Source: Nitrospirota bacterium | Lineage (GTDB): Bacteria > Nitrospirota > UBA9217 | Assembly (NCBI GenBank): GCA_963732675.1 | Contig: CAVTAJ010000013.1 | Span: forward strand, 34,137 to 98,136 | DNA length: 64,000 bases | Direction of reading: 5' to 3' | Shown here: positions 14,701 through 53,123 of the stretch, one piece after another | Layout: the number at the start of each line of letters is the position of its first letter | Position numbering within the stretch: the first letter of the stretch is position 1 | Notes under the pieces: model-generated | The model's input: only the letters and a program-made list of their open reading frames with translations | Database searches by the model: none | What the model was told of the DNA's origin: nothing | Program-made: the position numbers and the translations under genes

Positions 14701-15575
14701 CCGCTTGAACAGACCAGGTTCCCCTGGCCATCGAACTTTTTGACCTTGAAGTTGCCCGTGTCCGCAACATAGATGTTCCCGCGGACATCCACGGCTACGC
14801 CCTGCGGCTTATCGAACCCTGCAATTCTGATCCCCCGGGAACCGAATGCCACGACCTGCGTGCCGGAAGGATCGAACACGCGCACCATGTTTTTACCTGC
14901 ATCGAGCACGTAGACGCGGTTCTGGACATCCACGGCCACTCCTACCGGTGACTTCATATCGGATTTCGCGATCTTCGCCGCGATCTGAGTCATGAAAATG
15001 CCGTCAACCGTCAGCACCTGAACACGGCTGTTGCCGGTATCAGCGATGTACACCAGTCCTTTCGACACAGCGATCCCGATGGGCGAGTTGAACTCGCGGG
15101 GCCCGTCGCCTTTGGCGCCGAAACTGCGGAGCCATTTCCCTTCCCCGTCGAAGACCTGCACGCGGCTATTGCCGGTGTCCGCAATGTAGACGCGGCCCTG
15201 CTCATCGATCGCGATCCCCGCCGGCGATCTGAACTGGCCGGGCTTGCTCCCTTTGCCGCCCCAGGTCAGGACCGTATTGCCGTTCTGGTCCAGCACCACG
15301 ACCCGGTGGCCGTCGGTATCGGCAGCGTACAGGCGGTCCCCGTAAGCAGCCAGAGCGCGGGGTGCGTTGAATTGACGCTGCTTCGCCTGACCACCCATCT
15401 CACCGATCTCGCGCACGAACTCCATCTGCTGGTATGCAGAAGCCGGCATCGCAGACAGCAGAGAGAGCAGACAGATGAAGACAATATGCCGAACTGCCAC
15501 CACGTGCAAACCTCCTGAAAAACCACTACAGTATAACACGGAGCCCACGAACGGAACAATGAATAATGTTTGCAT
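11706..15575 (-). CDS. Giant secreted NHL-repeat / FN3 / transglutaminase-like / TPR protein
   Basis: About a dozen NHL repeats (recurrent G.F..P.GIAVD..G..YVADTGN.RVQVF). FN3-like segments (VSWKGN..YKIYR, ISWLPN..YRVYR). Transglutaminase-like core SGDCDDLSVLFAACMENIGI..VPGHLFVMF. C-terminal TPR repeats. Confidence 0.85.
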   Translation of the reverse strand: MQTLFIVPFVGSVLYCSGFSGGLHVVAVRHIVFICLLSLLSAMPASAYQQMEFVREIGEMGGQAKQRQFNAPRALAAYGDRLYAADTDGHRVVVLDQNGNTVLTWGGKGSKPGQFRSPAGIAIDEQGRVYIADTGNSRVQVFDGEGKWLRSFGAKGDGPREFNSPIGIAVSKGLVYIADTGNSRVQVLTVDGIFMTQIAAKIAKSDMKSPVGVAVDVQNRVYVLDAGKNMVRVFDPSGTQVVAFGSRGIRIAGFDKPQGVAVDVRGNIYVADTGNFKVKKFDGQGNLVCSSGSAGDGHGQFYVAAGLTVDPEGKIWVVDAGKSTVQVFVAERDDAPMLTPASPLPTMEFLKEMPGGAVAITFNNRAWGILGDSLSTLGVDDVRTIGSRGSKPAFLKNPRGLAVDGQGNFWVADTGNDRLQKFSRDGNLLHVIGKSGSGEGEFHSPSGIAVSPKGNLCIADTGNKRVQVFNARGAFIGSFGKKGKLAGQFNEIVDIAVDGAENLYVVDRGNDRIAKYDSDGRLLWEAGKTGTQDAEFREPENIVVSPDNEVYVLDAGNARIQVFDNSGRFLRKFGSEGTVSGKFRAPLGLALEEGRWLYVGDRGNNRVQVFLLRHTPAVPIELSAQARANLVQVSWKGNTETYLEQYKIYRADSPTAEFTLVGTSTTPFYLDKNLQTNRSFHYRVSSQAQEGNESALSDFVSAVTPKLVPGVPKRVRVEAQEKQITISWLPNLEPFINHYRVYRTKQVSAGFELLIETDKTIITDGPLQDETIYYYQITAVGKEGDESPASQVVFASTPRAPLVVPPLAITRIEADEIFASVYQYYGSHTLGKVVIANNTDRAYQKVKLSLMVKDYMYSPMETVIAEIGAKQQIEVLLKPLFNNLVLDDTDNTPLRGEVTVSVYEGGGPRTVKRSFPLVLFERHAMRWDRKAKLGAFVTHKAPVVADFSRLVVQEYIDAHPNVPQSIVYARGIYDALGVLGLKYLVDPTSPFTEFSNSASAVDYLQFPRDTLSRKSGDCDDLSVLFAACMENIGIGTAFVKVPGHLFVMFNTGVLEKDRITLGFPDELLVLHQGMVWIPVEMTMVGASFTRAWQKGAEEYRDWSARKSVDIISVQKAWEEFMPVVLPKTDLRVKVKRDAIEAAYKDELETLGRQRLMNLSAGYREMLKKNPYDKNALAQLGILFAENGLTSEALEQFQKMLAHDKTNALALNNIGNISYLQSRFDDARLAYEAALKASSGEPGIMVNLARTLLQTGKKEEAKKLFQDAAAIDPRVLRQYADLAVSLEIVK

Positions 15576-36992: not shown

Positions 36993-37638
36993 CTACATTC
37001 CCCCTGATATCCCCAGCCTCCGAAGGATATGGAAATGGACCCAGAGAAATAGCACCGTCAAGACCGGGAACCAGAGCATGTGCATACTGTAAAAACGGAG
37101 GAGCGTCTGGCCCGTCACCTCTGTGCCGCCGCGTACCAGGGCGGCGAGATGCGGCCCGAAGAGCGGCATTGAACCGAGCATGTTGGTCCCCACCACCGTT
37201 GCCCAGTACGCCTTCTGGTCCCAGGGAAGCAGGTAGCCCGTGAAACCGAACGCCAGCGTCATCGCCAACAGCAGGGCGCCTGCGACCCAGTTCAGTTCCC
37301 TCGGATTTTTGATAGGAGCCGGTGATGAAGACTCTGAGCATGTGGAGCAGGACCATCACGACCATGAGGTTCGCGGCCCAGTGGTGTATTGAACGGAGAA
37401 GGCCGCCGAGCGGCACGATCTGGTGCAGTCGCTGAATGCTCGGGTACGCCTCCGCCTCGGACGGGATGTAATGAATGGACAACAGCAGACCGGTCAGGAG
37501 CTGCACGATGAACAGGGTGAACGTAACGCCGCCGAAGCAGTAAAAATAGTTGATCCACCCCGGTATCGGCTTGTCCATCACTCTCCGGTGTCTGCTGGTG
37601 ATTCCCATGCGGGCATTGAGATAGTCGAGAATTTTCAT
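36993..37638 (-). CDS. Cytochrome b6-like (N-terminal half of cytochrome b), one frame break
   Basis: [35 protein letters not shown] joins [37 protein letters not shown].. after a 1-nt correction in the CAAAAAT run at ~37295. The ORF pieces are 36976..37638 and 36993..37268. Confidence 0.8.
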
Positions 37639-38896: not shown

Positions 38897-40258
38897 TTAT
38901 TCCTTGACAATCGTCGGCGTGATGAAGATCATGAGCTCATCCTGGTTTTCAAACTTGCTCTTCTTCTTGAAGAGCCAACCAAGGACCGGGATCTTCGACA
39001 GGAGCGGGACCGCAGATTCGGACTCGCCCTCGCTCTTGGTGAGGATGCCGCCGAGCACGACCGTCTCACCGTCATTCACCACCAGCTCTGAGTTTGCATT
39101 CCGTTTCGTGATCGTCGGGATATTGTCGACCTGCCTGGAAAAGTCGGGTTCCGACTTCTCCACCTTGATCGCAAGGGTGATCCGGCCGTCCTGGGCGATC
39201 GTCGGCGTGGTCGACAGCATCAAGCTCGTGGAAATGATCTGGACCTGCGCGGAGGTGCCGGCAGTCGTCGTGGTCAGCACCCGGACCGGGATATCGATAC
39301 CGCTCGATATCTTCGCTTCCTTATTATTCATCGTCATGACCTTCGGGCTCGACAGGATCTTCCCGTTCCCCGTGGTCTGCATGGCGGACAGCTGCAGATC
39401 AAGCGATAGAGCGCCGCCCAGTTTGCCGAAGGAGATCCCGATCGCGCCGCCGGAGCCGCTCCCCACCGCGGCCGGCAGGTTCACGGCATAGGCATTGCCG
39501 CTCAGGCCGATGTCACCGGTCATGGGAAAAAACGTAGTGCTGCCGATTGTGGAGCTTGAAGAGCCGCTCGTCGAACTACTGGAGCCCGAGGCGCCGCCGG
39601 TCACGACGGTAGTCCCCTTGCCGTTGGTACTTGAGTACTGCCCTCCCCACTGCACCCCCAACTCCCGCGCGTAATTGCTCGACACCTCGACGATCTTCGC
39701 CTCGATCAGGACCTGCGGCATTCTCACATCGAGGCTCTTGAGCAAACGCGCCATCTGGTCGATATTGAGCGAAAGATCTCTTACCACGAGCGCATTCATC
39801 CTGCTGTCAACGGAAATCCTCGCCTTCTCGCTTTTCACCCCGGTCACGATGGGAAGAACGTCCTGACTGCTGGCATGTCCGAGGGGAAAGACCCTGGTCT
39901 CCATATCATTGTCCCGCACCTCGGCCAGTGATAGTATGCGGACCATGTTGGCATCCCTCACGTAGGTGAGCCCCTTGGTCTTCAAAATGGACTCGAGGGC
40001 GTTCCAGATATCGACATTCTTAATGCTCAGGGAGACCTTTCCGCTCACCCCATCGCTCACGATCATGTTCAGGTTCGCCGCCTGTCCCACGGCCCTCAGC
40101 ACGTCCTTGATCTCAGCATCCCTGAACTCCATGGAGAACTCTGAATGCGTTTTTTTAATGTCTACCGTCTGGGCATGCGCCGGCGCGGCGATCAGCCACA
40201 GGGCAAGGCCCGCGAGCGTCGCCAGACGAAACAGGGATTGGGATGTACAGGGAACCAT
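38897..40258 (-). CDS. pilQ: Type IV pilus secretin PilQ
   Basis: Signal peptide ..LIAAPAHA. Secretin C-terminal signature VPLLSKIPVLGWLFKKKSKFENQDELMIFITPTIV. RBS GGAGGTG precedes ATG 40258 (the ORF track starts at 40339). Confidence 0.85.
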   Translation of the reverse strand: MVPCTSQSLFRLATLAGLALWLIAAPAHAQTVDIKKTHSEFSMEFRDAEIKDVLRAVGQAANLNMIVSDGVSGKVSLSIKNVDIWNALESILKTKGLTYVRDANMVRILSLAEVRDNDMETRVFPLGHASSQDVLPIVTGVKSEKARISVDSRMNALVVRDLSLNIDQMARLLKSLDVRMPQVLIEAKIVEVSSNYARELGVQWGGQYSSTNGKGTTVVTGGASGSSSSTSGSSSSTIGSTTFFPMTGDIGLSGNAYAVNLPAAVGSGSGGAIGISFGKLGGALSLDLQLSAMQTTGNGKILSSPKVMTMNNKEAKISSGIDIPVRVLTTTTAGTSAQVQIISTSLMLSTTPTIAQDGRITLAIKVEKSEPDFSRQVDNIPTITKRNANSELVVNDGETVVLGGILTKSEGESESAVPLLSKIPVLGWLFKKKSKFENQDELMIFITPTIVKE

Positions 40259-40369
40259 AGTCACCTCCGGTCGAGCCAATGGAATCTCGGGAGTCAGGGG
40301 GTTTGAGACGGCTTCGCCTTCAGACCCTTCAGACTCCATAAACTCAACAGACTCGATAGACTCTCTTCC

Positions 40370-40793
40370 TCACTTGTTCATGGTAAAATCTTCGAGGAAC
40401 ACTTCTTCTTTTTCGCCGGCGGCGCTCATGAGCACCACGCTCCGCCTGCGGATATCCACCAGCTTCCTGTCGCCGACCTTGACGCCTTCCTGATACGTCT
40501 CGCCGCCGATAATGGCCAGCCGAACGTCCTCGCTGAAAATAATTCCGGTCAGCAGACGGCCGGAGGCCAGGCGAAGGCGCCATCTTCTGCGCCGGCGGCT
40601 TACCTGCCAGAGGATTGTTGAAGGGATCTCTGCCCCAGGAGCCGTCTCCGGAAGGCGGGCCCGGGACAATCGCAACAGGCCGCCCGGCGGAGGGATGAAA
40701 GGGGTCGTTCTCCGCTGCGCCTTCCTGCGCCTGGACCGCAGTCGCGAAGATGACCGTCAATGTCATAATGATATAGAGTAGTCCTTTGCACAT
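40370..40793 (-). CDS. PilP-like pilus assembly lipoprotein/periplasmic protein (one frame break)
   Basis: The N-terminal piece MCKGLLYIIMTLTVIFATAVQA.. (frame of 40344..40958) joins the C-terminal beta domain LTGIIFSEDVRLAIIGGETYQEGVKVGDRKLVDIRRRSVVL (40370..40675). Break near 40570. Confidence 0.55.
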
Positions 40794-40869
40794 ATGTCCA
40801 AATTCACAAAACGTTTTAATGCCCCTTGTGCTGTTCCTCACACCGTATTCCGTAATCCGCATTAGGTTC

Positions 40870-41424
40870 TCACTTCGCCATATACGTGACCGCCTCGATC
40901 TGGGCTGCGCACACCGAAGACGCATCGGGGCAGGATTCAATGCGTATCTTGCGGACATTCACGACCGTGGGCAGGCTCTCAAGGCGCTTGAAATATTCTC
41001 CAAGCTCACGGTAGCGGCCTTTGAGGTCGATATTCATCGAAAGTTCTTTGTACTTCTCCTTGGTGGTTTCCCGGGCGGGATGGATCTCCACCAGATTGAC
41101 CCCCATGCGGCGGGCGGCGCCGGACACATCCTCGAGGAACAGGATAGCGCTCTTCTGGTCGGCCAGGTCCCATCCTGCTGATGCCGACATATCAATGGAT
41201 GCGCGACGTTTGAGCTCAACGATCTGCGCCGTCTGGTCAAGAAGATCATTTTCACTATTGCGAATGTTCGTCTGGACGGAAGATACTGACCGCACCAGCA
41301 TATCATAGGGCACTTGATAGAACAGCCATGAGAGCGTACAGAACAGGGTGACCGTGGCAACAATACGCTCCCGCTTCGTGAGCTTCCGCCAATAGTCAAC
41401 AAGTGACCGCTTGTCAGCCATCAC
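40870..41424 (-). CDS. pilO: Type IV pilus assembly protein PilO
   Basis: N-terminal TM, coiled coil, then ..MGVNLVEIHPARETTKEKYKELSMNIDLKGRYRELGEYFKRLESLPTVVNV. 4-nt overlap with pilN. Confidence 0.7.
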   Translation of the reverse strand: MMADKRSLVDYWRKLTKRERIVATVTLFCTLSWLFYQVPYDMLVRSVSSVQTNIRNSENDLLDQTAQIVELKRRASIDMSASAGWDLADQKSAILFLEDVSGAARRMGVNLVEIHPARETTKEKYKELSMNIDLKGRYRELGEYFKRLESLPTVVNVRKIRIESCPDASSVCAAQIEAVTYMAK

Positions 41425-41993
41425 CGAGCCTCCTGCGCTTTTTTCATGCCGCAGATGATCTCAAAGCCAACCATGTCCTGCCCCTGGACCACGGCCTTCT
41501 GGGCATAGGATAGCTGCGGATCTTCGAAATATCCTGATTTTTCCATGGAACGCATAAAATCGGCTATCGAGAGATAGCTTAATGCGCCCCCCTTGATCCT
41601 GATCTGTGCCTTGCCGTCGGCAATGCCTTCCAGGTAATCGAACCAAAGACCTTTGGGGACAATGAGCGAGAGCTGTTTGAATACCCGCGACCACTGCACC
41701 CGCTCCTTCAATATATCCTGGATCAACGCGGCCTTGTCCCGCGTCATTCCCGTTGGTGAAACGATCGCAAGCTCTTTACGCAAGGCGTCCATCTGCTGCC
41801 GGAGTGTCTGCTTCTGAGCGTTCAGGGTGGCAAGCCGGTTTTGCGACATCGCGTACTGCCGCGCCTGCCAGCCGAACAATACCAGCCACACCAGTATGAA
41901 CAGCATGGTCAGAAGAACACCCCACGTCGCAAAGGAAGAGGATTTCTTTTCCTCCTGGGGCAGCAGATTGATATAGTCTTTTACCGGTTTCAT
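41421..41993 (-). CDS. pilN: Type IV pilus assembly protein PilN
   Basis: INLLP motif at the N-terminus, a single TM, a coiled coil, and a position between pilM and pilO. Confidence 0.75.
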   Translation of the reverse strand: MKPVKDYINLLPQEEKKSSSFATWGVLLTMLFILVWLVLFGWQARQYAMSQNRLATLNAQKQTLRQQMDALRKELAIVSPTGMTRDKAALIQDILKERVQWSRVFKQLSLIVPKGLWFDYLEGIADGKAQIRIKGGALSYLSIADFMRSMEKSGYFEDPQLSYAQKAVVQGQDMVGFEIICGMKKAQEAR

Positions 41994-42067
41994 GATGTTT
42001 TTATTTTTTCATCCTGCCGCTGCTTTTAAGAATACCGACCCGGACATGCCGGGACCAAAAGCGAATA

Positions 42068-43093
42068 TTAAACTTTTCTCAGCGCCAGCCCAATGGCCGC
42101 CGAAAACCGCGGCGCAACGGGTCCGAACTCCTCCAGCATGCTCTCCTTACATGACAGGCAGTCAAAAGGCCGGTCGATCTCCACCCCATGTTCCAGAGAT
42201 TGCTCACAGTATGCCGCCGTCCCCTGCATGAGCGAAACGCCGCCGCTCAAGATCATGCTCTCCACGTTTTTCTCCCGGAACGTGGTTTTATAGTATTCAA
42301 CTGACCGGCGGATCTCCATGAGCAGACCGTCGAGCCGCGACTGGACCGCCTCGATCGCCTTGTCCTGGCCGGCCGGGGTAAGAACGTTCAGAGTACGCTT
42401 CTTGTCTTCCGCCTCCTGCAAACCGATGCCCAGCGTATCGGCGATGGCGCGGGTCATGTCCAGCCCGCCGCTCTCGATACAGCGGCTGAAGCGGAGAATT
42501 CCGCCCTTGAAAATATTGATCTCGGTCTTGCCTGCGCCGAGGTCCACGACGAGGGTGTTTGCGTCAACGGGTATCTCGCGGAACCGGAGAACATTGCGGA
42601 GCGACAGCGCGTTGGCGTCCACGGCGGACACTTTGATCTTCGCTTCCTGGAACGGCATCAGATGCTCAAGCACCTTTCCCCGTTCAGCGGCCACCATAAC
42701 GAGGTCGTACTTCTCCACCGCGCCCTCGCGTTTTTCATCGACAATAAGGTATTCGATCTGGGCGGCATCGACAGGATACGAAATATGCCGCTTCGCCTCC
42801 CAGCGGACCGCCTCGCGCAGCTCGCTGAGCGGCATCTTGGGCAGGGTGAGCGAGCGGATCGTCAGGTGCTTGCCGGGCATCAGGGTAACGATGTTGCTGC
42901 TGCCGATCTTCTTGCCGGCCTGGAGATGGTGGAGGTCGGAGCTGATGCTCATGGCCTGGGCCGGGTCGGGCGGAAACTCCACAAGCACTGCCGACAAAAG
43001 CTTCGGACGCTTCCCGCTCTTCGCGATGCGCACGACCTTGATGCTTCCCGCGCCGATGTCGATGCCCGTTATGTCGTTTGAAAAGAGTCCCAT
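42068..43093 (-). CDS. pilM: Type IV pilus assembly ATPase-like protein PilM
   Basis: Actin-like fold cues GIDIGAGSIKVV and VVDLGAGKTEINIF. It is the first gene of the pilMNOPQ order. Confidence 0.85.
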   Translation of the reverse strand: MGLFSNDITGIDIGAGSIKVVRIAKSGKRPKLLSAVLVEFPPDPAQAMSISSDLHHLQAGKKIGSSNIVTLMPGKHLTIRSLTLPKMPLSELREAVRWEAKRHISYPVDAAQIEYLIVDEKREGAVEKYDLVMVAAERGKVLEHLMPFQEAKIKVSAVDANALSLRNVLRFREIPVDANTLVVDLGAGKTEINIFKGGILRFSRCIESGGLDMTRAIADTLGIGLQEAEDKKRTLNVLTPAGQDKAIEAVQSRLDGLLMEIRRSVEYYKTTFREKNVESMILSGGVSLMQGTAAYCEQSLEHGVEIDRPFDCLSCKESMLEEFGPVAPRFSAAIGLALRKV

Positions 43094-43206: not shown

Positions 43207-43443
43207 TCAACTCTTCTCCGTCTTGAGCTCTTCCGAAGCCATCTGGTACGCCATCTTGTGCTTGTACCCGCGCCGCAAATATTTCCAGATCGCCCGAACA
43301 CGCTCGAAGTCCTGCTTGCTGTATTCCCGTGCCTCCAGGTCGCCCATGGGGATGCGTTTCGGGCTAATATACCCCTTCTGCTCCAGGTAGTAGAGCTTGT
43401 GCCTCGGGATCTCGAGCTTGCTGATGATTTCTGATGTCTTCAT
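43207..43443 (-). CDS. Small MerR-like helix-turn-helix protein
   Basis: 78 aa. TSEIISKLEIPRHKLYYLEQKGYISPKR resembles a MerR/excisionase-type HTH. It lies upstream of pilM on the same strand. Confidence 0.6.
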   Translation of the reverse strand: MKTSEIISKLEIPRHKLYYLEQKGYISPKRIPMGDLEAREYSKQDFERVRAIWKYLRRGYKHKMAYQMASEELKTEKS

Positions 43444-44104: not shown

Positions 44105-46147
44105 TCACGGAAATATCTCTTTCCAGTCAAGCGACATGAGCGGGTTATTGCGTCGTTCAACTGCGAGACATAGCCGTTCCATGACAGGGGCTGCTACGGT
44201 CGGTCCGCCCCAGACGGTGAATTTCGCCGACCATACGGCGCCGCCTGATGTCAAATGGCTTTCCCAAATATCGTCAGTTGCAGAGGCTGAGCTTTCATAT
44301 ATGCCGGACAACACCGCCCCGGACACGGGGTGCGCCACCATTTGGACCAAACTCGTATCGTCTCCTGTGGTCGCTATGCCTCCCCACGCGGCCCCATTCC
44401 ATTGTCTCCTGCTGAGTCTGGAGCCGTTCCCCCACAAGAGCCACGCCCTGCCGGCATTCGCTGCAAAAGTTTCAAACACGATGTCGTTATTTCTGCTTGT
44501 ATCCTCAGTACCGGTATCATGCTCTGGATGCGAGGCCGCGGTATCCCATGCAGCGCCATCCCAATAACGAGTGTTCAAATCTCTTCCTGAGTCCTGAACG
44601 CTGTACATGATCCCGTTGGAATAGGGATCAGCAGCCAGCCTTATCCAATTAGCCACTCCACCCATGTTTGCGATATCCAAATTCGTAATACCGCTTAACG
44701 TTAAAGTCGCCCCATCCCATATTCGGAAACGCTGTCTCCTATTCGTGGAACTGCCCCAAATGAACATGGCCCTGCCAGTCAGCTGCTCATAGGCCACATG
44801 GATTGCCTTGGTCGTGGAAGTGGAGGCCGCGGTATCCCAGACCCCCGCAACCCCCATATTATTCCAGGCTGCTCCGGTCCATCTCATGCCGTAGACATAG
44901 GAATTACTATCAAGCAAGATCATGGCAATTTCGCTGCTGACGCCCGGCTTCCGCGCAAGTTCAATCCAATTCGGGCTGCCGGTTGTAGGAACATTTATAT
45001 CCCAGGGTCCGGACCATCCCACTCCATCCCATATCCGGTAGTCCGGGTCAGCGGTCCCATCGTTATAAACCACGATCGCCCGGTCGCCGGTGTTTTCGTA
45101 TTCAATGTCAAATCCGCGATAATTATCATCCGTCGTGCCGATGTTCGCCAGCAGCAACGTAGCACCCCACGCGGCGCCGTTCCAGACCTGTACCCGGATG
45201 TCGCCATTCGAGCTCAGTGTTCCGAGCACGGCTTCGTCGCGTGTCTTGGCGAACTTGAGCATGACATATTGGATATTCGCGGGCACAGGCGTGGCCGCCA
45301 TCTCCGCTCCCCAGGCAGTCCCGTCCCACCGCCGGTAATAGGGTGTGCCGTCTCCGTTCGCTTTGGCATAGACCATCATGGCGCCTGAAATGCTGTTGGT
45401 TTGCATACTGGCTGTCACCGCGCGCTGTGCGCTGCCGACGGTACCGGTGGATGTGATGGCATATTGAAAAACATTGCTTCCAAGCAGATGAGCGGCTGCC
45501 GGAGATCCCTTGTAACCTCGTATGCAGCTTGTGAATTGCGCCGTTCCACTGACGCCTGCGCAAAAAATATACTCCGTATCTATGACGATCACTCCGGGGA
45601 TGCTGAACCCGACGTTCGATGTGACGTTGATCGTCGTGTTACCGATCGGAAGGGGGTTGTTAGTGACCGTTGTAACGGGGTAGACCGCATTGCCGACAGC
45701 GTGGGCGCTCGCAGTCGTGCCTCCCGCGCCACGCGTAACGCCGACATTAAATTGGGTGGCATTCTTTCCAGTGTAAGTAATCAGCTCAGAATCAATGATG
45801 ATGCGGCCCGCGTTCGGGAAGGTCGCGGTAGATTGAACATTAATTGTCAGCCCGGCAGCTCCCGGATCAGCCGTCAGATACGTGGGTGTGGAAACCGTGA
45901 AGCTGCCCGTGCCAAGGCTTACCATCGTCCCAGCCGTAGAGTAATTCGGGAACGCCCGATTTTCCAGTATGTATTCCATCCCGCCGTCCGCCACGTACAA
46001 AGCCTGCGCGGACTGTATATCATTAACGGCCGTGAAGCTGCCGGTATTGATCATCGACAGAAACATCACGCCCATGAACCCAAGGACCACGATGATGAAT
46101 ATTGCCGCGATGATGGTGACGCCATTTTGATGTTTTTTGTTCATCAT
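44105..46147 (-). CDS. PilX-like N-terminal anchor fused to a repeat beta-propeller-like domain (candidate pilus tip protein)
   Basis: The N-terminus NGVTIIAAIFIIVVLGFMGVMFLSM..SAQALYVADGG is PilX-N-like. Two ~60-aa G.I.ID.E.I...RG..G..A..H repeats follow. Then come about 8 repeats carrying W(D/N)G.(A/G)W (RRWDGTAWG, VQVWNGAAWG, YRIWDGVGWSG, MRWTGAAWN, TRYWDGAAWD, RRQWNGAAWG..). Confidence 0.7.
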   Translation of the reverse strand: MMNKKHQNGVTIIAAIFIIVVLGFMGVMFLSMINTGSFTAVNDIQSAQALYVADGGMEYILENRAFPNYSTAGTMVSLGTGSFTVSTPTYLTADPGAAGLTINVQSTATFPNAGRIIIDSELITYTGKNATQFNVGVTRGAGGTTASAHAVGNAVYPVTTVTNNPLPIGNTTINVTSNVGFSIPGVIVIDTEYIFCAGVSGTAQFTSCIRGYKGSPAAAHLLGSNVFQYAITSTGTVGSAQRAVTASMQTNSISGAMMVYAKANGDGTPYYRRWDGTAWGAEMAATPVPANIQYVMLKFAKTRDEAVLGTLSSNGDIRVQVWNGAAWGATLLLANIGTTDDNYRGFDIEYENTGDRAIVVYNDGTADPDYRIWDGVGWSGPWDINVPTTGSPNWIELARKPGVSSEIAMILLDSNSYVYGMRWTGAAWNNMGVAGVWDTAASTSTTKAIHVAYEQLTGRAMFIWGSSTNRRQRFRIWDGATLTLSGITNLDIANMGGVANWIRLAADPYSNGIMYSVQDSGRDLNTRYWDGAAWDTAASHPEHDTGTEDTSRNNDIVFETFAANAGRAWLLWGNGSRLSRRQWNGAAWGGIATTGDDTSLVQMVAHPVSGAVLSGIYESSASATDDIWESHLTSGGAVWSAKFTVWGGPTVAAPVMERLCLAVERRNNPLMSLDWKEIFP

Positions 46148-46206: not shown

Positions 46207-46815
46207 TCAGAAATTCCTCGGATGCACCCTGGTTCGCATCTGCAGGGATTCCGAACCCTGTGTATCGGTCAGGTTGATGTCAACAAACCACAGGTTTGCT
46301 GCCGTTGCCCCGCCGGCTCCGGCCGAATCGAGATACGTGAATGTCAGCGGGTTAATACCGCTCGAAGATAGGGCGTTCCACCCACCCCATGCGAATGGGC
46401 TGCACGTTGCGCTCTCACGCCGGTTCAAGGCCGCTCCTGCAAGCTGAAATTCTACTGCTTTTCCGGTCACATCGCAAAAAATCAAGTCTGTGGCGGCCAT
46501 CGTTGGGATATCGCCGGCTGTCTGGCTCCTGATCAACCTGATCTCCCTGGCCATACGCTCCATGGCAATCCTGGCCTGGTAGTGCGCTTCGCTGAGGTTC
46601 TGCTCTTTTGAGCTTGCCTTCATCCCCTCAAGGATGATCAGGGCCGCAATGCTGGAAATGATCCCGACGATCACGATCGTAATGATGGCCTCAATAAGGG
46701 TAAAGCCTCTCGAGTTCGAAGTGTGGAGTGTGGAGTTCGGCATTGAACTTTCGCAATCCGTGTCCCGCATCTTGCCCCGTTTTTTATTCCTCACTCCGTA
46801 ATCCGCAATTCGCAT
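46207..46815 (-). CDS. Minor pilin (PilW-like), prepilin N-terminal methylation motif
   Basis: ..SNSRG|FTLIEAIITIVIVGIISSIAALII. The start is ambiguous (46815, or internal ATGs giving MRDTDCESS.. or MPNSTLHTSNSRG). Confidence 0.7.
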   Translation of the reverse strand: MRIADYGVRNKKRGKMRDTDCESSMPNSTLHTSNSRGFTLIEAIITIVIVGIISSIAALIILEGMKASSKEQNLSEAHYQARIAMERMAREIRLIRSQTAGDIPTMAATDLIFCDVTGKAVEFQLAGAALNRRESATCSPFAWGGWNALSSSGINPLTFTYLDSAGAGGATAANLWFVDINLTDTQGSESLQMRTRVHPRNF

Positions 46816-46827
46816 CCGAAGCCCCTT

Positions 46828-47271
<444 letters not shown>

Positions 47272-47272
47272 C

Positions 47273-47830
47273 TCAATTCACCGCCCCGGTCTGCACATAA
47301 ACCGACACCCTCATGGACGCATTACCATTTACGTCTGCAGTCATTGTCGCAGCCAGCGGGACCGTGCCGCACGCACCAGCGCCGCACGTATAGGGCCGTC
47401 CGAGGGAATCATATTCAAGACAGGTTATTGATGGGGCAGGAATACTGATTCCTGCATAAATTCCGGCATTCAACGTAACGAGCATATTCCCCCCGCCGGC
47501 TGGATCAGATGCCAACAGGAAGACGCTGCAATTACCGGTACCGCTGTTGTCAATTCCTACGGTGTAACCTTGCGCTGGAGCCGTCACCGGGGCCGGACCT
47601 GTTCCGTTGAAATACACCCTCGTCCGCTTCCCTCGCGTCATGGCCAGGTTTTGCGCATAGCGGATATCGGCGCGCAGTTTGTCGGAAAAAGCCGCGGCGT
47701 TCGTGGTCGTCATGGTGCCCAGCCTCGGGATAACGACCGCTGCCAGGATGCCGATAAGCACCATGACCATGATGAGTTCTATAAGTGTAAAACCTTTTCT
47801 GTCCATGGATTGCTCACAGTATATCAACAT
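47273..47830 (-). CDS. Minor pilin, FimT/GspH-like
   Basis: Leader MDRKG|FTLIELIMVMVLIGILAAVVIPR. Its size and its position as first gene of the minor-pilin operon fit FimT/GspH. Confidence 0.7.
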   Translation of the reverse strand: MLIYCEQSMDRKGFTLIELIMVMVLIGILAAVVIPRLGTMTTTNAAAFSDKLRADIRYAQNLAMTRGKRTRVYFNGTGPAPVTAPAQGYTVGIDNSGTGNCSVFLLASDPAGGGNMLVTLNAGIYAGISIPAPSITCLEYDSLGRPYTCGAGACGTVPLAATMTADVNGNASMRVSVYVQTGAVN

Positions 47831-47860: not shown

Positions 47861-49840
47861 CTATCCCCGGCTCCTGTCCAGAAGGTCCTGCACGGCTTTC
47901 CGGTCCGGAGAATCTTGCGGCAGGAGTTCCAACGCCTTCCGGAAATACTTTCCCGCCTCCTGACGGCTGCCAGTTCCAAGCAGGACCTGTCCCATGCCTT
48001 TATAGGCCGGCGCGTATCCGGGGGACATTTTCGACATTATTGAAAAATGCTTGAATGCCTCGTTATAGTTCTTCTTTTCAAGGTATGTCGTCGCGATAAT
48101 ATTTCTGATATATATGTTCATCGGATCGGCCAGCAGGGCCTTGTTCATGGTTTCCCTGCCTTTTTCCGGCTCGCCCAACTCAAAATAACTTTGTGCGACC
48201 ATCAGGTAATCTTCCGACTTTTGCGGGATACCCTTTGCTGCCGCTGAGTAATATTCCGCTGCATTCTTTTTATTGCCGAGCTGTTTGTAACATTCGGCTA
48301 TTGATCCTAAAACTGCGGGCGAATAGTTTTTTCCCTCTGAGGCCTTTGTGAACGTTTCAATGGCCTTTCGGTATTCCTTTTTTTGTTTATAAATGGAACC
48401 GAGATTGTAATAGTATATTTCCGCCGAGATCGACCCGTTCAGGGTAAGCATTATCTCCTCAGCCTTTTTCAGGTCATCCTTCATAAAATAGGCAATCGCC
48501 AGGTTCAGGTACGTTGCGACCGCGCGGTTGCCTTGTTTCAGCGAAAGCTCCATGATGCCGATGGCCTTGTCAATATTTCCACGTTCCAGATAGGCCGCGC
48601 TTAAATTGACATAGGCCTTGCTTTTTTCGGGCGCTTTTTTAAGGGCATCGGCCCAGAGCGTGATGGGGTCTCTATACACGTCATTCCGCATAACGGTCAA
48701 GACGCCGAAGAAAAGGACAATGCCGACGATTGCGGCAATGCCGGTTCTTGTATACCGCTGCGAGGCGTCAACGAACAGCTTGCTGAGGGCAAGGCAGAAG
48801 CCGAGCCCCGCAGCGTAGACCCATCGCTCCGCCATGTAATCGCTCATCCGCATTGCCAGGAACGGCGTCAGGTTGATGAAGAACCAGAAGATTGAAAAAG
48901 ACAGCACCCGGCTCTTATTCCTGAAGAGATATGCCGCCAGAAGAAGCCCCGCGACGACCGCCACGGAAAGCCCAACGCGGAGATCCAATGAGATGGACTC
49001 TGTTACCGAATGATCGATCGTCAGCCCGACAGGAATGAATCATCAGCCGGAGATAGTCGACAAATACCGTGATCTCGGTCAGCAGGTGCGTCGGCCAGGG
49101 CCGGTCATACATTTCCGGGTGGGTGATACTTCCGGCATAATACAGAAAACCCGCTGCCATCATTGCCCAAAAAGGCAGGTGAAATTTAATTCTCGAGAGA
49201 AAGTTTTGGTCTTTCCTCGGCAATAAAATAATAATCGAACAGGATGAGGAGCGCCGGCAAGACAATGGCGGACTCCTTCGATGCCAGTCCGAGAACAAAA
49301 AGAACGACGCTGAATCCATAGGGGAGAAAAGAAAATTCTTTTCCCGTGGCTCGAAAAAACAGAAGCATCGTTCCCAGCATTAAGAGCGTGGACAACTCCG
49401 AAGACCGACTCGATATATAGGTTACGCTTTCAGTATTGATCGGATGCACTACAAAGAACAGCGCCGCAAGTAGCGCTATGGTGTGATATCGGTCATCGTC
49501 TTTATTGTCGACATACCGGGCGATCAGCAGATAGAACGTAAAAGCAACAGCAATGTGGATGCTCAGATTGACAAGATGGTATCCGAACGTATCAAGACCA
49601 CCCACCATATAATTGAGGTAAAAGGTAAAAAGAAGAAAAGCCCTGCTGGTTATCACCGCCGCGAAGTGCCCGGTTATCCAGTCGAGATAAAGCGGGAAGA
49701 GACTTGATGATGAGTTGTTCTTTCAGAAAATGAAAATCATCGTAATGAAAAGGTACGCTGAAGGAATTGAGATAGGCGAGCAAGCCTGTCAACGTGAGGA
49801 AGAGCAAAACCGTTCTTTTGCGGATCACGGTGGAATGCAT
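47861..49840 (-). CDS. TMTC/PMT-like multi-TM protein with C-terminal TPR repeats (at least 3 frame breaks)
   Basis: ORF pieces 49592..49840, 49186..49656, 48915..49319 and 47861..48988 concatenate. The motifs AYLNSFSVPFHYDDFHFLKE, FGYHLVNLSIHI and FVVHPINTESVTYISSRSE resemble bacterial TMTC-like O-glycosyltransferase-type proteins. About 8 TPR units form the C-terminal half. Confidence 0.6.
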
Positions 49841-49910: not shown

Positions 49911-50258
49911 TTACAATGCAACTCCCGTCAGATTGCATACACGAGTTGACCCCTGATAGGAAATCGTAACATTCGCCGGCGTCGTCCCGGTCGCCGTTGC
50001 AGAGCCTCCTAAATCAGTATTAGAAATAACATTGGCAAACGGCTTCAGCGTTCCCCGTGGATACCCGGTATACGAAGACGCTATCAAGACTGCCCCGCTT
50101 GACTTCAATCCACCGCACATGCCATCAAAGCTTGCACTCAGAGCGTCTGTCCGCATATCAATATACTTCGGGATCGCCACTGCCGCCAGGATACCCAGAA
50201 TCACGATGACCATGACCAACTCAATTAATGTAAAGCCTTTCTGTGTTCTTGCCATCAA
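49911..50258 (-). CDS. Type IV pilin (copy 1)
   Basis: MMARTQKG|FTLIELVMVIVILGILAAVAIPKYIDMRT... Its first ~70 codons are nearly identical in DNA to copy 2. Confidence 0.85.
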   Translation of the reverse strand: MMARTQKGFTLIELVMVIVILGILAAVAIPKYIDMRTDALSASFDGMCGGLKSSGAVLIASSYTGYPRGTLKPFANVISNTDLGGSATATGTTPANVTISYQGSTRVCNLTGVAL

Positions 50259-50303
50259 GTATCCCTCCTGCGAAGATAGTTAGGAATGCATTTAACCCCT
50301 GTC

Positions 50304-50339
50304 AAAAAATTGGCTATGGGGATTGCTCCCCATAGCCAA
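50304..50339 (-). terminator. Rho-independent terminator after pilin copy 2
   Basis: 13-bp perfect stem TTGGCTATGGGGA (50310-50322) / TCCCCATAGCCAA (50327-50339), followed on the minus strand by T6. Confidence 0.75.
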
Positions 50340-50362
50340 TCATGGTTTCCATTACGTAACTG

Positions 50363-50701
50363 TTACTGCACGACTGCCGTCAAATCGCATGCACGAGTAG
50401 ACCCCTGATAGGAAATTGTTGCTACCTTTCCTGCTACAGTCGTCGTTGCGCCGCCTAAATCAGTATTCGCAAGAACGTCAGCGATCGGCTTTAGCGATCC
50501 CCGAGGATACCCGGTATATGAAGACGCGATCAAAACCCCGCCGCTTGACTTCAACCCTCCGCACATGCCATCAAAGCTTGCACTCAGCGCGTCTGTCCGC
50601 ATATCAATATACTTCGGGATCGCCACTGCCGCCAGGATACCCAGAATCACGATGACCATGACCAACTCAATTAATGTAAAGCCTTTCTGTGTTCTTACCA
50701 T
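50363..50701 (-). CDS. Type IV pilin (copy 2)
   Basis: MVRTQKG|FTLIELVMVIVILGILAAVAIPKYIDMRT... RBS AAGGAGGGA. The C-terminal ~35 aa diverge from copy 1. Confidence 0.85.
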   Translation of the reverse strand: MVRTQKGFTLIELVMVIVILGILAAVAIPKYIDMRTDALSASFDGMCGGLKSSGGVLIASSYTGYPRGSLKPIADVLANTDLGGATTTVAGKVATISYQGSTRACDLTAVVQ

Positions 50702-50840
50702 TTTTGTTCCCTCCTTAGAATTAGTATTATTAAACTCCCATTGTACTCAGCAAATCGATCACTTGCATTAAACACTGTCAATATAATTAAAGCCCCCGGC
50801 GCGCGCCTTCCGCGCCATTTGCCCTTCATTGCAACTGCGA

Positions 50841-51277
50841 TCAGCAGCCGGTTAATGAGGTACTAACGGAACCTGTAGCGCCGCTATACAGGGCACCGCA
50901 TGTCGCACTTCCGCCATTGGTAGGCTGAAACGTAACTGCATTTGGATCCGTCATGTCGATGTTAAATCCCGCGGTATCGGTAAGAGCTGAGATGATGCCG
51001 GCTTGGTACCACTGGGAATCCCATTGGGAGCGTTCACAAGGACACCGTCCATATCAATGCTTGTGCCGCTCGCATATCCTGACACCATGTACTTTGCCTT
51101 TGAAACAATTATCGCGGCTCTCAGGCCGCCGGCCATCCCGTTTACCGCCGCTTTCCGGGCATCAGTTACGATATTGATATACCGAGGTATGGCCACTGCT
51201 GCTAGAATTCCCAAGATCACGATAACGATTACCAGTTCGATGAGGGTGAAACCTTTTTGTTCTCTTGCCATTTTCAT
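50841..51277 (-). CDS. Type IV pilin (copy 3), one frame break
   Basis: RBS AGGAGGAAGGAG. MKMAREQKG|FTLIELVIVIVILGILAAVAIPRYI... After ..NAPNGIPSG (~51010) a second frame gives a credible pilin C-terminus, YQAGIISALTDTAGFNIDMTDPNAVTFQPTNGGSATCGALYSGATGSVSTSLTGC (Cys..Cys loop, stop 50841-50843). Confidence 0.7.
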
Positions 51278-51359
51278 CTCCTTCCTCCTAATTTTACACA
51301 TAATATCTGTTCCCTAAAGACATTCGATGCAACGCCCAAGCATGGAACCCGTGTGTATG

Positions 51360-51824
51360 CTACCAGTTTTCATACCCTCTTGTCGTCGCCTTGACCTCTC
51401 CGAGAACAGGATCGTACGCGTAGTAACTGCCGAATGGATCCACAAGACGCCCCTGTGCATCCAGCGCCTGTGCTACAAGATATTTCTCGTCTAAAAATAT
51501 CGAACCCGAAGAAGGATCAGGCCCCATTCTCGAAGGAAGCATAACACTTTTTTCAATAAGTTCATTGAGGCTCTTGGGGTTTCGTGCATTCAACGCACGA
51601 AAAAGCCGGATGCTCGAACGAATATTCGCCAACCCCATTTTAAGGGCCGCTTCCTGGGCCTCGCGGGCCACTCGCTGATATTTCGGAATCACAACGCCGA
51701 TCAGAATGCCGATAAGGCAGAGAGTAATGACAGCATCAATGATCGTGAGCCCTTTTGCATTCTTGTACCAGGTCCCCACGCTGCCTCCGAAACGGCTTGC
51801 GGTTAAAATATACGCTTTTTGCAA
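51360..51824 (-). CDS. GspG-like pseudopilin / atypical type IV pilin-like protein
   Basis: KG|LTIIDAVITLCLIGILIGVVIPKY has Leu at +1 and Asp at +5 instead of Phe and Glu. The C-terminal LVDPFGSYYAYDP resembles the GspG DPWG.PY.Y motif. Confidence 0.6.
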   Translation of the reverse strand: MQKAYILTASRFGGSVGTWYKNAKGLTIIDAVITLCLIGILIGVVIPKYQRVAREAQEAALKMGLANIRSSIRLFRALNARNPKSLNELIEKSVMLPSRMGPDPSSGSIFLDEKYLVAQALDAQGRLVDPFGSYYAYDPVLGEVKATTRGYENW

Positions 51825-51905
51825 TGCAGAGTCAACGTATACTTTTGTTCAAAACCATTAAAGATAGCCCAACAGTAACAGGCAAAGAGATGTTCAGCTG
51901 TTTGA

Positions 51906-53123
51906 TCACCTCTTGAACAGACTCATCATATTCCACATGGGGAGGAAGATCCCCAGGGCCAGGAACAGGACCATGCCGCCGACAAAGAGAAGCAGGATCG
52001 GCTCGATCATGGTCGAAAGGTTGCGGAGGGTATACTCCACGTCCATGTCGTAGTAATCGGAGACCTTGTTCAGCATGGTATCGAGTTGCCCCGTTTCCTC
52101 GCCCACCGCCATCATCTGAATGACCAGCGGCGGAAAAAGCCCCGAGGACTCCATCGGCGCGGTCAGCCCCTTGCCGTCCCGGAGACTTCCGCTCATGGAC
52201 TCCACTGCCCGGGCGATCACTACATTGCCGACCGTCTCGCCGGCTATCTCGAGCGTCAGCATCATGGAGATGCCGCTCTTCTGCATGGCGCTGAATACGC
52301 GCGCGAACCGCGAGAGCGCTACTTTTTGAAAAAGGGTGCCGAACACCGGCAGCTTGAGCTTCAGCCGGTCCCATTGCCATCTGCCCGCTGGCGTTCCCAG
52401 ATACCATATCACTCCCCACGCAGCCAGGACGATGCTGATGATAATAAGATACCAGTAGTGCTGGACCACGTAGTTGATGTTGATCAAAATGCGGGTAGGC
52501 AGCGGCAGCTCTGTTTTAAACTGGGCAAAGATCGCCGCGAACTTCGGGATCACGAACGTGACAAGAAATGCAAATGCCGCAGAGATGGCGATCACAACGA
52601 TCAGCGGATATCGGACAGCTGCTTTCACCCGCGCGCGGGTTTCGGCCTCATGCTCGGAAAGAAGCGCCAGCCGGCTCAGGATCTCGTCGAGGATACCGGC
52701 CGTCTCACCGGCCCGGATCATGCTCACGTACAGTTTGTTGAATAACTTGGGCTGCCTGGCAAGGGCATCGGAGAACGAGCTGCCGGCCTCAATGTCACGC
52801 CTGAGCTGAGAAATCGCGGATTTCAACCGGGGATTTTCCGACTGCCGTTCGAGTGTTACGAGGCCCTGGATAAAGGGGATGCCCGCGCTCATGAGCGTGG
52901 AAAGCTGCCTGCTGAAGATGATGAGGTCCTGCGTCGTGACCTTGGAAAACAGTGCACCGAGGTCGGTCCCCGACAGCCGCGCCGGCTCGTGCTCCTCGAT
53001 CAGCACCGGGATGTGTCCCATGCCGGAGAGCTGGTCCGCTACGCCCTCTTTGCGCGCAGCCTCCATCGTACCGGTGTGCAGCGCGCCGTCTTTATCCCTG
53101 GCCCTATAGCGGTAAAGCGGCAT
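51906..53123 (-). CDS. pilC: Type IV pilus platform protein PilC (GspF family)
   Basis: 405 aa with a duplicated GspF-type domain (..LSTLMSAGIPFIQGL.. and ..FSAMQKSGISMMLTLEI..), three TM regions and a C-terminal LGIFLPMWNM. Confidence 0.9.
   Translation of the reverse strand: MPLYRYRARDKDGALHTGTMEAARKEGVADQLSGMGHIPVLIEEHEPARLSGTDLGALFSKVTTQDLIIFSRQLSTLMSAGIPFIQGLVTLERQSENPRLKSAISQLRRDIEAGSSFSDALARQPKLFNKLYVSMIRAGETAGILDEILSRLALLSEHEAETRARVKAAVRYPLIVVIAISAAFAFLVTFVIPKFAAIFAQFKTELPLPTRILININYVVQHYWYLIIISIVLAAWGVIWYLGTPAGRWQWDRLKLKLPVFGTLFQKVALSRFARVFSAMQKSGISMMLTLEIAGETVGNVVIARAVESMSGSLRDGKGLTAPMESSGLFPPLVIQMMAVGEETGQLDTMLNKVSDYYDMDVEYTLRNLSTMIEPILLLFVGGMVLFLALGIFLPMWNMMSLFKR

Follow-up and report, generated by a model that had tools for sequence, protein, structure and literature searches.

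A minor pilin of a Nitrospirota bacterium that joins a PilX/GspK-type N-terminus to a lectin-like propeller and a PilY1-type tail, a probable single-chain initiator and tip of a type IV pilus

The DNA analyzed here, referred to as the window, is a 64-kb stretch of a Nitrospirota genome that contains an operon of minor-pilin genes with both of its ends, the upstream one marked by a divergent rho and the downstream one by a MerR-like gene and pilMNOPQ. The fourth and last gene of this operon encodes P0001, whose open reading frame starts with an ATG at 46147 on the minus strand and stops at 44105-44107, so the position that an earlier note on this DNA had given it (44105-46147, at the end of a minor-pilin operon) was right. 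Homologues that align in full length span 99-100% of the protein. P0001 follows minor pilins in the H, I and J positions (Table 1), and the same H-I-J-K gene order is found at the relative loci L003, L004, L007 and L008. The pilin in the PilW/GspJ position is 78% identical to the syntenic gene of L004, and the PF12019 match of the pilin in the GspH position reaches 20.4 bits against a cut-off of 21. The genes that flank the operon include a pilin-glycosylation-type TPR membrane protein, and in relatives MshE-type ATPases adjoin the same gene set. All five homologue neighborhoods that were looked up were type IV pilus clusters. Neighboring genes within the window indicate sulfur metabolism.

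Table 1. Positions in the window of the P0001 gene, the parts of its product and the surrounding pilus genes
Feature	Position	Strand	Basis
P0001, 680-aa tip minor pilin (PilX/GspK/MshP-class N-terminus, stalk, propeller head, probable C-beta tail)	44105..46147	-	ORF and translation
Leader (aa 1-9, ending Gly9) and long alpha-helix (aa 9-63), no Glu+5	45959..46147	-	sequence; AF2
Stalk module 1 (aa ~101-156), motif G.I.ID.E.I...RG..G..A.AH..G..V	45680..45847	-	internal duplication
Stalk module 2 (aa ~172-227), copy of module 1, conserved Cys196/Cys208 pair	45467..45634	-	internal duplication
Eight-repeat W(D/N)GxxW beta-propeller head (aa 255-665)	44153..45385	-	repeats, AF2, Foldseek
C-terminal tail PLMSLDWKEIFP (aa 669-680), probable closing beta-strand (C-beta) in cis	44108..44143	-	DSSP strand, co-variation
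PilW/GspJ-position minor pilin, 202 aa, GFTLIE	46207..46815	-	N_methyl 9.7e-8; weak GspJ, PilV, HpsC matches
PilV/GspI-position minor pilin, 147 aa	46828..47271	-	N_methyl; sub-threshold PilV, ComGE, GspI
GspH/FimT/FimU-position minor pilin, 185 aa	47273..47830	-	N_methyl; TIGR01708 gspH 2.4e-10; GspH PF12019 7.6e-4
pilM, pilN, pilO, pilP-like (frame-shifted) and secretin pilQ, downstream	38897..43093	-	PilM_2 4.7e-34; Secretin 8.4e-50; synteny with L004
T2SSF platform gene plus three major-pilin-like genes in tandem, at the start of this gene string	49911..53123	-	T2SSF 1e-56; pilin N-termini; synteny with L004

P0001 begins with a short basic leader, MMNKKHQNG, which is followed after Gly9 by a hydrophobic helix (VTIIAAIFIIVVLGFMGVMFLSM). 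The leader and the hydrophobic segment behind Gly9, VTIIAAIFIIVVLGFMGVMFL, have the characters of the leader and the ~20-residue alpha-1N of the PilK/PilX/GspK/MshP class. Residue +5 of P0001 is Ala, and all three upstream minor pilins carry GFTLIE. Since PilK-class apical pilins "invariably lack Glu at +5" (PMC13533445), P0001 bears the signature expected at the very top of the tip complex. Of the 60 aligned homologues, at least 90% keep Gly9, and G9, A49, A53, G56 and E58 are nearly invariant in the family. A helix spanning residues 8/9-63 is predicted in both AF2 models, that of the whole protein and that of the N-terminal part. PilX_N (PF14341) matches 10 of the 60 family members, the best at 6.7e-7, and PF07963 matches 11 of them, with one or other of the PilX_N and N_methyl matches in 21. 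P0001 itself gave no PF14341 match at E <= 1; its relative P0042 reaches 26.0 bits where the cut-off is 25.5, and the JGI annotation of homologues is MshP or PilX. The PilX-like hydrophobic N-terminus described in the earlier note can be specified as PilX/GspK type, with Gly9 and no Glu+5.

The stalk contains two modules of ~56 residues. Their self-alignment scores 89, compared with a best score of 56 among 1000 shuffles (z = 11.3), which confirms as a true duplication what had first been read as two tandem modules of ~60 residues. The AF2 model of the N-terminal part has a pLDDT of 91.6, and the fold matches of the stalk are phage fibre, baseplate and structural proteins. A Foldseek search of residues 1-255 against the PDB returned no solved pilin; it gave a baseplate chain of phage JBD30 (E = 8.5e-4) and Ig-like noise.

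The head is built from repeats that are centered on W(D/N)GxxW, with the motif Trp at 274, 322, 373, 423, 477, 529, 583 and 639 and a spacing of 48-56 residues. Blade-against-blade alignments score up to z = 8.8; the last of the eight repeats has degenerated. All 24 Trp residues of P0001 fall within residues 255-680, and the double Trp of WDGxxW, recurring in every blade, is the most conserved feature. The AF2 model of the whole protein has a mean pLDDT of 85.7, with values above 90 over most of 255-665, where means of 10-residue blocks run at ~87-98 and each repeat has ~4 strands. As modeled, eight such repeats would make eight blades. When the model was searched with Foldseek, the fucose lectins PLL, PHL, BP39L and CV39L were the best matches (E 1e-11 to 1e-8, TM(target) 0.61-0.71), the top 23 matches were all PLL/PHL/BP39L lectins at probability 1.0, and RSL matched at a TM(target) of 0.53-0.55. 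This similarity is structural, as the identity of the head to the matched lectins is only 10-17%. The eight repeats at residues ~255-650 and the propeller fold that the earlier note had proposed for them both hold up.

Sequence comparison placed the head in none of the families considered. Against Pfam and NCBIfam, P0001 matched DUF2510 only, below threshold (E = 0.037); likewise, among 70 single blades compared with Pfam, DUF2510 was the sole hit, sub-threshold and in 7 of them. PF05567, BNR, FG-GAP and RCC1 gave no Pfam match to P0001 at E <= 1. A comparison of the head with PilY1, FG-GAP and BNR, suggested in the earlier note, was thus negative, and the repeat motif is, as that note said, distinct from the Asp-box. 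Family and single-blade profiles found nothing significant among PDB sequences, where pilin helices came up at E ~1 and T5 pb4 at E = 0.099, and the RSL-like chain 3zi8 matched the blade profile at E = 6.4. No PilY1 chain was among the top 50 Foldseek matches, and P0001 has no Ca-binding loop motif of the Dx[DN]x[DN]G type. Because no Pfam, NCBIfam or PDB sequence match was significant, membership of P0001 in the PLL, AAL/RSL, BNR, FG-GAP, RCC1 or PilY1 family was rejected at the sequence level. Three relatives carry the precomputed tag PF26696.

By analogy with its fold neighbors, the head is probably glycan-binding. The motif WDGxGW forms the fucose site of RSL/AAL lectins. PLL and PHL of Photorhabdus, BP39L and CV39L, which are seven-bladed, and the six-bladed RSL/AAL lectins have four-stranded blades in common with P0001, and also inter-blade Trp sugar pockets of the kind proposed for it; however, they are soluble and have six or seven blades, whereas P0001 has eight repeats and no significant sequence or profile match to them. 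It is conceivable that the head is a tip adhesin for a ligand other than sugar, such as a protein, a mineral or sulfur surface or DNA, and that its lectin likeness is only a shared fold. This would agree with the structural nature of the likeness (TM 0.61-0.71, 10-15% identity, seven blades against eight repeats), the lack of a lectin match in Pfam or PDB sequences and the neighboring genes that point to sulfur metabolism. We consider it unlikely, because the most conserved feature is precisely the double Trp of every blade, paired Trp side chains grip the sugar in PHL/PLL (PMC5584973), and polysaccharide is bound by TM7x PilX2, which is likewise a propeller pilin and has the same fold neighbors.

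P0001 ends in LDWKEIFP, in which W675-K-E-I-F-P680 has the Trp, charged pair and hydrophobic residues of a PilC/PilY1 tail; those tails consist of Trp, Arg and Glu followed by I/V/L/F and dock on the sheet of PilX (PMC13711793). Docking onto PilX/PilK takes place by beta-strand addition (PMC13711793, PMC13533445). The closing strand comes either in trans, from PilC/PilY1, or in cis, from PilK homologues, and in adhesin-less systems a large insertion separates the acceptor sheet from the donor strand (PMC13533445). In the AF2 model of P0001, DSSP assigns a strand to residues 670-678 (pLDDT 64-70). A W-x-E tail is present in 65 of 85 propeller pilins that lack Glu5, none of which has FRIDI, while pilins of the Glu5 type have FR(I/V)DI in 26 of 39 cases and W-x-E in 3. 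W-x-E also closes 44 of 52 relatives that carry other heads on the same stalk. Across hundreds of relatives, judged from their sequences, tail type tracks the N-terminal pilin type and not the head. We infer that the closing beta-strand of P0001 comes in cis from P0001 itself; the head is less a C-terminal fusion than a domain inserted ahead of this strand.

A search with the whole protein gave 2514 representative clusters (50% identity) at E <= 1e-3, and the majority of the best matches cover the propeller region. The propeller family spans Bacteria, CPR and Archaea, and among 142 propeller proteins with lengths of 451-760 aa, 123 have pilin-type N-termini. In Nitrospirota, the stalk and tail carry at least five unrelated heads. 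One reading of this distribution is that the Nitrospirota stalk and W-x-E strand would form a fixed socket for swapped heads, and that the eight-repeat propeller would be an unnamed pan-prokaryotic lectin-type module recruited independently by PilX/K-type pilins (W-x-E), Glu5-type Patescibacteria pilins (FRIDI) and archaeal pilin-like and giant surface proteins; we give it even chances. Propellers from Nitrospirota and Patescibacteria share 50-57% identity, while the N-terminal modules differ. Such identity across phyla is unusually high for an adhesin, and a machine-related role could be possible on this sequence evidence. The propeller might then be an assembly or regulatory domain that stabilizes or times the initiation complex, or senses tension, with adhesion provided by other subunits; the PilY1 propeller has been suggested to accelerate or stabilize tip-complex formation (PMC13533445). 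We regard this as improbable. Because one type of stalk and tail goes with at least five unrelated heads, the conserved assembly interface does not depend on the head. This propeller is also found in archaeal proteins and, with up to ~16-17 matched stretches, in giant surface proteins that are not pilins, which fits a general binding module. The fold neighbors of the head, being lectins, also argue against it.

The design of P0001 can be compared with those of several known systems. CpaL (Caulobacter Tad), ComZ (Thermus) and GspK/XcpX (T2SS) are, like P0001, apical pilins without Glu+5 (Ellison et al., PNAS 2026, PMC13533445), and all of them have a bulky non-pilin domain before the extreme C-terminal strand, an H-I-J-K order and no separate PilC/PilY1 gene in the locus. 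CpaL without its middle region leaves piliation normal while attachment is lost. The inserts are unrelated: CpaL has a middle region that contains an adhesin domain, ComZ a beta-solenoid and GspK an alpha-domain, whereas that of P0001 comprises two phage-fibre-like modules and the eight-repeat WDGxxW propeller; its cis strand, unlike theirs, is one that we infer. PilC/PilY1 and V. cholerae MshQ share with P0001 the W-(R/K)-E-hydrophobic tail (PMC13711793), an adjoining propeller, a proposed tip site and a proposed double role in initiation and adhesion. However, PilY1 is a separate Sec-exported non-pilin with a seven-blade Ca-binding propeller of PF05567/IPR008707, in contrast to the pilin N-terminus and eight lectin-like repeats of P0001, which lacks PF05567 and a Ca-site motif. 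PilX2 of Nanosynbacter lyticus TM7x is a PilX-named minor pilin with a C-terminal beta-propeller whose structural neighbors include fucose lectins (Grossman et al., ISME J 2025, PMC12206443). Experiments showed that host binding requires PilX2, and it binds polysaccharide of the cell wall (PMC12206443; bioRxiv 10.64898/2026.10.06.756255). Its propeller is seven-bladed with RCC1 repeats and its owner is a monoderm CPR episymbiont, whereas P0001 has no RCC1 match, carries eight repeats of the WDGxxW type on a long stalk, and belongs to a diderm machine with a secretin. In the modular pilins PilB (vWA) and PilC (ConA-like lectin) of S. sanguinis and CofB of ETEC, a pilin carries a grafted tip module (Raynaud et al., PNAS 2021, PMC8179133; PMC9934059), and many such modules without database signatures were foreseen (PMC8179133). 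P0001, with a pilin-type module and a module that is not T4P-specific, falls under the definition of a modular pilin, but there the module is appended by a linker after a complete pilin fold, and the head of P0001 seems to lie between the pilin module and the closing strand. The single-chain principle itself is already published, between 2021 and 2026, for modular pilins, CpaL, ComZ and TM7x PilX2; the propeller family of P0001 is unnamed.

Within the 64-kb window no ORF matches PF05567, and the sole ORF of more than 700 aa encodes an NHL/TPR protein; as the earlier note had remarked, there is no separate pilY1 in the operon, nor did the PF05567 search of ORFs find one in the window. The note's larger proposal, that an anchor and a propeller in one chain replace PilX and PilY1, is supported: of the two outcomes that the note named as refuting, neither a C-terminal region without a propeller fold in the model nor a pilY1 in the operon or window was seen, and the PilY1-type tail, which varies with the pilin-type N-terminus, adds to this. 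The propeller, however, is lectin-like rather than PilY1-like and has no PF05567 match. Because a capping pilin carries both a PilY1-type docking tail and a propeller, a single protein probably both initiates the pilus and serves as its sticky tip. In the mechanism that we propose, the leader would be cleaved and the alpha-helix would anchor P0001 in the inner membrane. The completed sheet of P0001 would be recognized by the PilV/PilW-like dimer, and the dimer, P0001 and the GspH-like subunit would form an initiation complex that licenses polymerization of the major pilins. Since this complex would remain at the distal tip, the stalk, made of two beta modules that resemble phage fibres, would face outward together with the Trp-rich propeller, and the head would bind glycan multivalently through inter-blade pockets lined by the WDGxxW Trp. 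By these steps, one chain would perform the two jobs that are split elsewhere between PilX and PilY1, or MshP and MshQ.

GspK-type subunits also cap T2SS pseudopili. That P0001 is not part of an extended pilus at all, and instead either sits in the inner membrane as a bitopic protein whose propeller is periplasmic or caps a short T2SS/Hps-like secretion pseudopilus, is very improbable. Although the gene string within the window has no PilB or PilT ATPase gene and one homologous minor pilin matches HpsB/HpsC weakly, the operon is flanked by three tandem major-pilin genes, by pilMNOPQ and by the gene of the TPR membrane protein, MshE-type ATPases adjoin the same set in relatives, and there are no T2SS-specific GspC/L/M genes. 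Taken as a whole, P0001 is likely a PilK/PilX/GspK/MshP-class capping subunit of a type IV pilus, acting as single-chain initiator and glycan-binding tip.

For environmental bacteria without PilY1, such a protein would answer in a single chain which subunit caps the pilus, how its assembly starts and to what it adheres, an answer consistent with the beta-strand-addition model published in 2026. A very large propeller family that sits preferentially on pilins, and a conserved stalk-plus-tail scaffold that would exchange heads, have so far been uncatalogued, and both could help to annotate better the thousands of proteins now called "hypothetical" or "MshP". If the scaffold does act as a socket for swapped heads, it would be a cassette system that diversifies the specificity of the pilus tip, comparable to the exchange of receptor-binding proteins in phages.

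The putative tip pilin P0001 is the 680-aa product of a real open reading frame, which runs on the minus strand from 46147 to 44105 and, as the earlier note had stated, is the last gene of its operon; it is also the final member of a co-directional gene string. The string is bounded upstream by the divergent rho gene and on the other side by a 660-bp gene-free gap followed by the MerR-like gene and pilMNOPQ, therefore both operon ends lie within the window. The claim that no separate pilY1 is present holds for the operon and the window, and no PF05567 gene was found in any locus examined. A 1289-aa protein with an NHL-repeat propeller, fn3 and TPR, the sole ORF of more than 700 aa in the window, is unrelated to PilY1. 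The window is syntenic with L004 and L007, two loci of relatives, from rho through the cytochrome b genes. The MerR-like gene has 91% identity to an 80-aa MerR_1 gene of L004 and may regulate pilMNOPQ locally.

Features in and around the pilin gene string
Feature	Position	Strand	Remark
T2SSF platform gene	51906-53123		co-directional string
Three pilin genes in tandem	49911-51301		co-directional string
TPR/multi-TM membrane protein gene	about 47864-49777	-	between pilins and minor pilins
GspH/FimU-like minor pilin	47273-47830		co-directional string
PilV-like minor pilin	46828-47271		co-directional string
PilW-like minor pilin	46207-46815		directly before the P0001 gene in string order
P0001 gene	44105-46147	-	last in string
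MerR-like gene	43210-43443	-	beyond the P0001 gene, before pilM
pilM-N-O-(P)-Q	38897-43093		after the MerR-like gene
pilP-like gene	40373-40793	-	between pilO and secretin
Cytochrome b gene	36996-37638	-	downstream of secretin
NHL/fn3/TPR protein gene	11706-15575	-	1289 aa

Three genes neighbouring P0001 carry frame breaks. The TPR/multi-TM gene is broken into three reading frames, its L004 orthologue being one intact 643-aa protein; the pilP-like gene has one break (frames -3 then -1), with an intact 140-aa L004 orthologue; and the cytochrome b gene switches frame near 37306-37310 relative to its 214-aa L004 orthologue. P0001 has no such break and aligns collinearly with its homologues. Three frame breaks in about 13 kb suggest assembly indel errors, not decay.

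The N-terminus of P0001 reads MMNKKHQNG/VTIIAAIFIIVVLGFMGVMFL and lacks Glu at +5, in contrast to the GFTLIE of each of the three genes upstream. The two tandem modules of about 60 aa that had been described behind it were borne out: residues ~101-156 and ~172-227 align with a score of 89 (z = 11.3; best of 1000 shuffles, 56). The N-terminal 255 residues modelled apart (A3) reached a pLDDT of 91.6 and form a helix of 55 residues with beta modules behind it. In Foldseek, this model matched a domain that is widespread among fibre, baseplate and structural proteins of phages, with the JBD30 baseplate chain in the PDB (E = 8.5e-4) and 33 BFVD matches at E <= 1e-3, the clearer ones at 20-28% identity; no solved pilin was found among the matches. 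Therefore, the proposed PilX-like anchor stands as a pilin-type N-terminus without Glu5, but it consists of a helix and a phage-fibre-like stalk and not of a textbook pilin head. In the second stalk module, a Cys196/Cys208 pair (window ~45524-45562), kept in the family consensus ExIxC...FTxCxRGY and absent from module 1, may form a disulfide.

About eight W(D/N)G-centred repeats, proposed to form a propeller, had been noted behind the stalk, and eight were located, with motif Trp at 274, 322, 373, 423, 477, 529, 583 and 639, pairwise z-scores up to 8.8 and a degenerate eighth repeat. Since there are eight repeats, the propeller would have eight blades; two blade types alternate along them, therefore the repeat unit is a four-fold double blade. 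AlphaFold2 with the 60-sequence family alignment (A1) gave a mean pLDDT of 85.7, with 10-residue block means of about 87-98 over residues 255-665 and about four strands per repeat. The 23 best Foldseek matches in the PDB were all seven-bladed fucose lectins (PLL, PLL2-5, PHL and BP39L; E 1e-11 to 1.5e-9, target TM 0.66-0.71), followed by CV39L (E 1e-8, TM 0.61-0.62), also seven-bladed, and the six-bladed RSL (TM 0.53-0.55), whereas P0001 has eight repeats. No PilY1 chain was among the top 50. The fucose site of RSL/AAL lectins is formed from a WDGxGW motif. In PHL, sugar is held by paired Trp side chains between blades (PMC5584973). The likeness of P0001 to these lectins is limited to fold and motif. 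Pfam and NCBIfam searches matched nothing, and whole-family and single-blade profiles gave no significant match to PDB sequences. Three propeller-bearing relatives (P0017, P0019, P0095) carry the precomputed tag PF26696, which lies outside the Pfam copy searched, and a newer release may already include part of this domain.

This propeller occurs very frequently. With the whole protein as query, 2514 representative clusters were retrieved at E <= 1e-3, 374 of them at E <= 1e-30, the best matches falling mostly on the propeller region, and propeller identity to P0001 is 50-57% in relatives including Nitrospirota, Patescibacteria, Caldiserica and Proteobacteria. Among species-representative genomes, bacterial carriers were detected in Nitrospirota, Thermodesulfobacteriota, Gamma-/Betaproteobacteria, many Patescibacteria classes, Caldiserica and Elusimicrobiota, and archaeal ones in Hadarchaeales, Bathyarchaeia, Methanosarcinaceae, Aenigmatarchaeota and Woesearchaeota. 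Among propeller proteins of 451-760 aa (n = 142), a PilX-type N-terminus lacking Glu5 occurs in 85 and a canonical prepilin N-terminus with Glu5 in 38; the propeller is also found in longer proteins, at up to about 16-17 matched stretches each. Pilin-sized members adjoin one to seven prepilin-like ORFs plus T2SSF, PilM or secretin genes in the genome scan, and 5/5 contexts looked up were T4P clusters.

The C-terminus of P0001 ends in ...PLMSLDWKEIFP. Residues 1-250 searched alone retrieved 94 relatives, mostly Nitrospirota, the whole stalk being covered in 69, and behind the stalk these 69 carry at least five unrelated head classes, among them the propeller; the others on the Nitrospirota stalk measure about 225, 190, 427 and 240 aa. 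Ten relatives scanned (classes of about 225, 190 and 427 aa) gave no Pfam match in these heads. Almost all whole-stalk relatives terminate in (L/I)(D/S)W(R/K/Q)E(V/I)xx, and this W-x-E tail is kept in 44/52 relatives bearing other heads on the same stalk as P0001. P0149, P0160, P0165, P0166, P0262 and their relatives combine at least four other heads with the Nitrospirota stalk and W-x-E tail. Propeller pilins without Glu5 have the W-x-E tail in 65/85 cases and the FRIDI tail in 0/85, whereas those with Glu5 have FR(I/V)DI in 26/39 and W-x-E in 3/39. Among propeller pilins, the tail thus tracks the N-terminus, not the head. The Patescibacteria propeller pilins (L010-L046) have a true Glu5 prepilin N-terminus and a conserved tail (D/E)PV(Y/F)FR(I/V)DI(A/S)TP, which may serve the Glu5 pilin type as its counterpart of the closing strand.

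Two studies of 2026 account for this pattern. The C-terminal tail common to PilC/PilY1 proteins consists of Trp, Arg, Glu, then I/V/L/F, and docks on the PilX sheet via beta-strand augmentation (Yount et al. 2026, PMC13711793). Either PilC/PilY1 supplies this last strand in trans or PilK homologues, among them GspK, CpaL and ComGG, supply it in cis, and the PilI-PilJ dimer recognises the completed sheet and licenses assembly; in systems without a tip adhesin, the PilK homologue has a large insertion between acceptor sheet and donor strand (Ellison et al. 2026, PMC13533445). The same study equates MshD/O/P/Q with PilV/W/X/Y1. P0001 fits this scheme exactly in its K position, lack of Glu5, large insertion and PilY1-type tail, which supports the interpretation that a single chain replaces PilX + PilY1; the observation behind it is confirmed.

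Operon position, pilin signatures, a propeller model with lectin neighbours and a tail motif co-varying with the pilin module are established for P0001. In the mechanism we propose, the leader would be cleaved, the tail would add the closing strand in cis, the PilV/PilW-like pair would recognise P0001, and P0001 would sit at the pilus tip, where its Trp-lined head would bind glycan multivalently. A less likely alternative is that the head would serve assembly, not adhesion; its high conservation across phyla is in keeping with this. For P0001 as an adhesive tip pilin, TM7x PilX2 offers an experimental precedent by analogy: this minor pilin, with an RCC1 propeller different from that of P0001, binds cell-wall polysaccharide, and attachment to the host depends on it (PMC12206443; bioRxiv 10.64898/2026.10.06.756255). 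Modular pilins as a general idea, with the prediction of many modules without signatures, were set out by Raynaud et al. (2021, PMC8179133). The kind of tip pilin to which P0001 probably belongs is already known from the literature of 2021-2026; new are the unnamed propeller head and phage-fibre-like stalk of P0001 and the apparent swapping of heads among its relatives.
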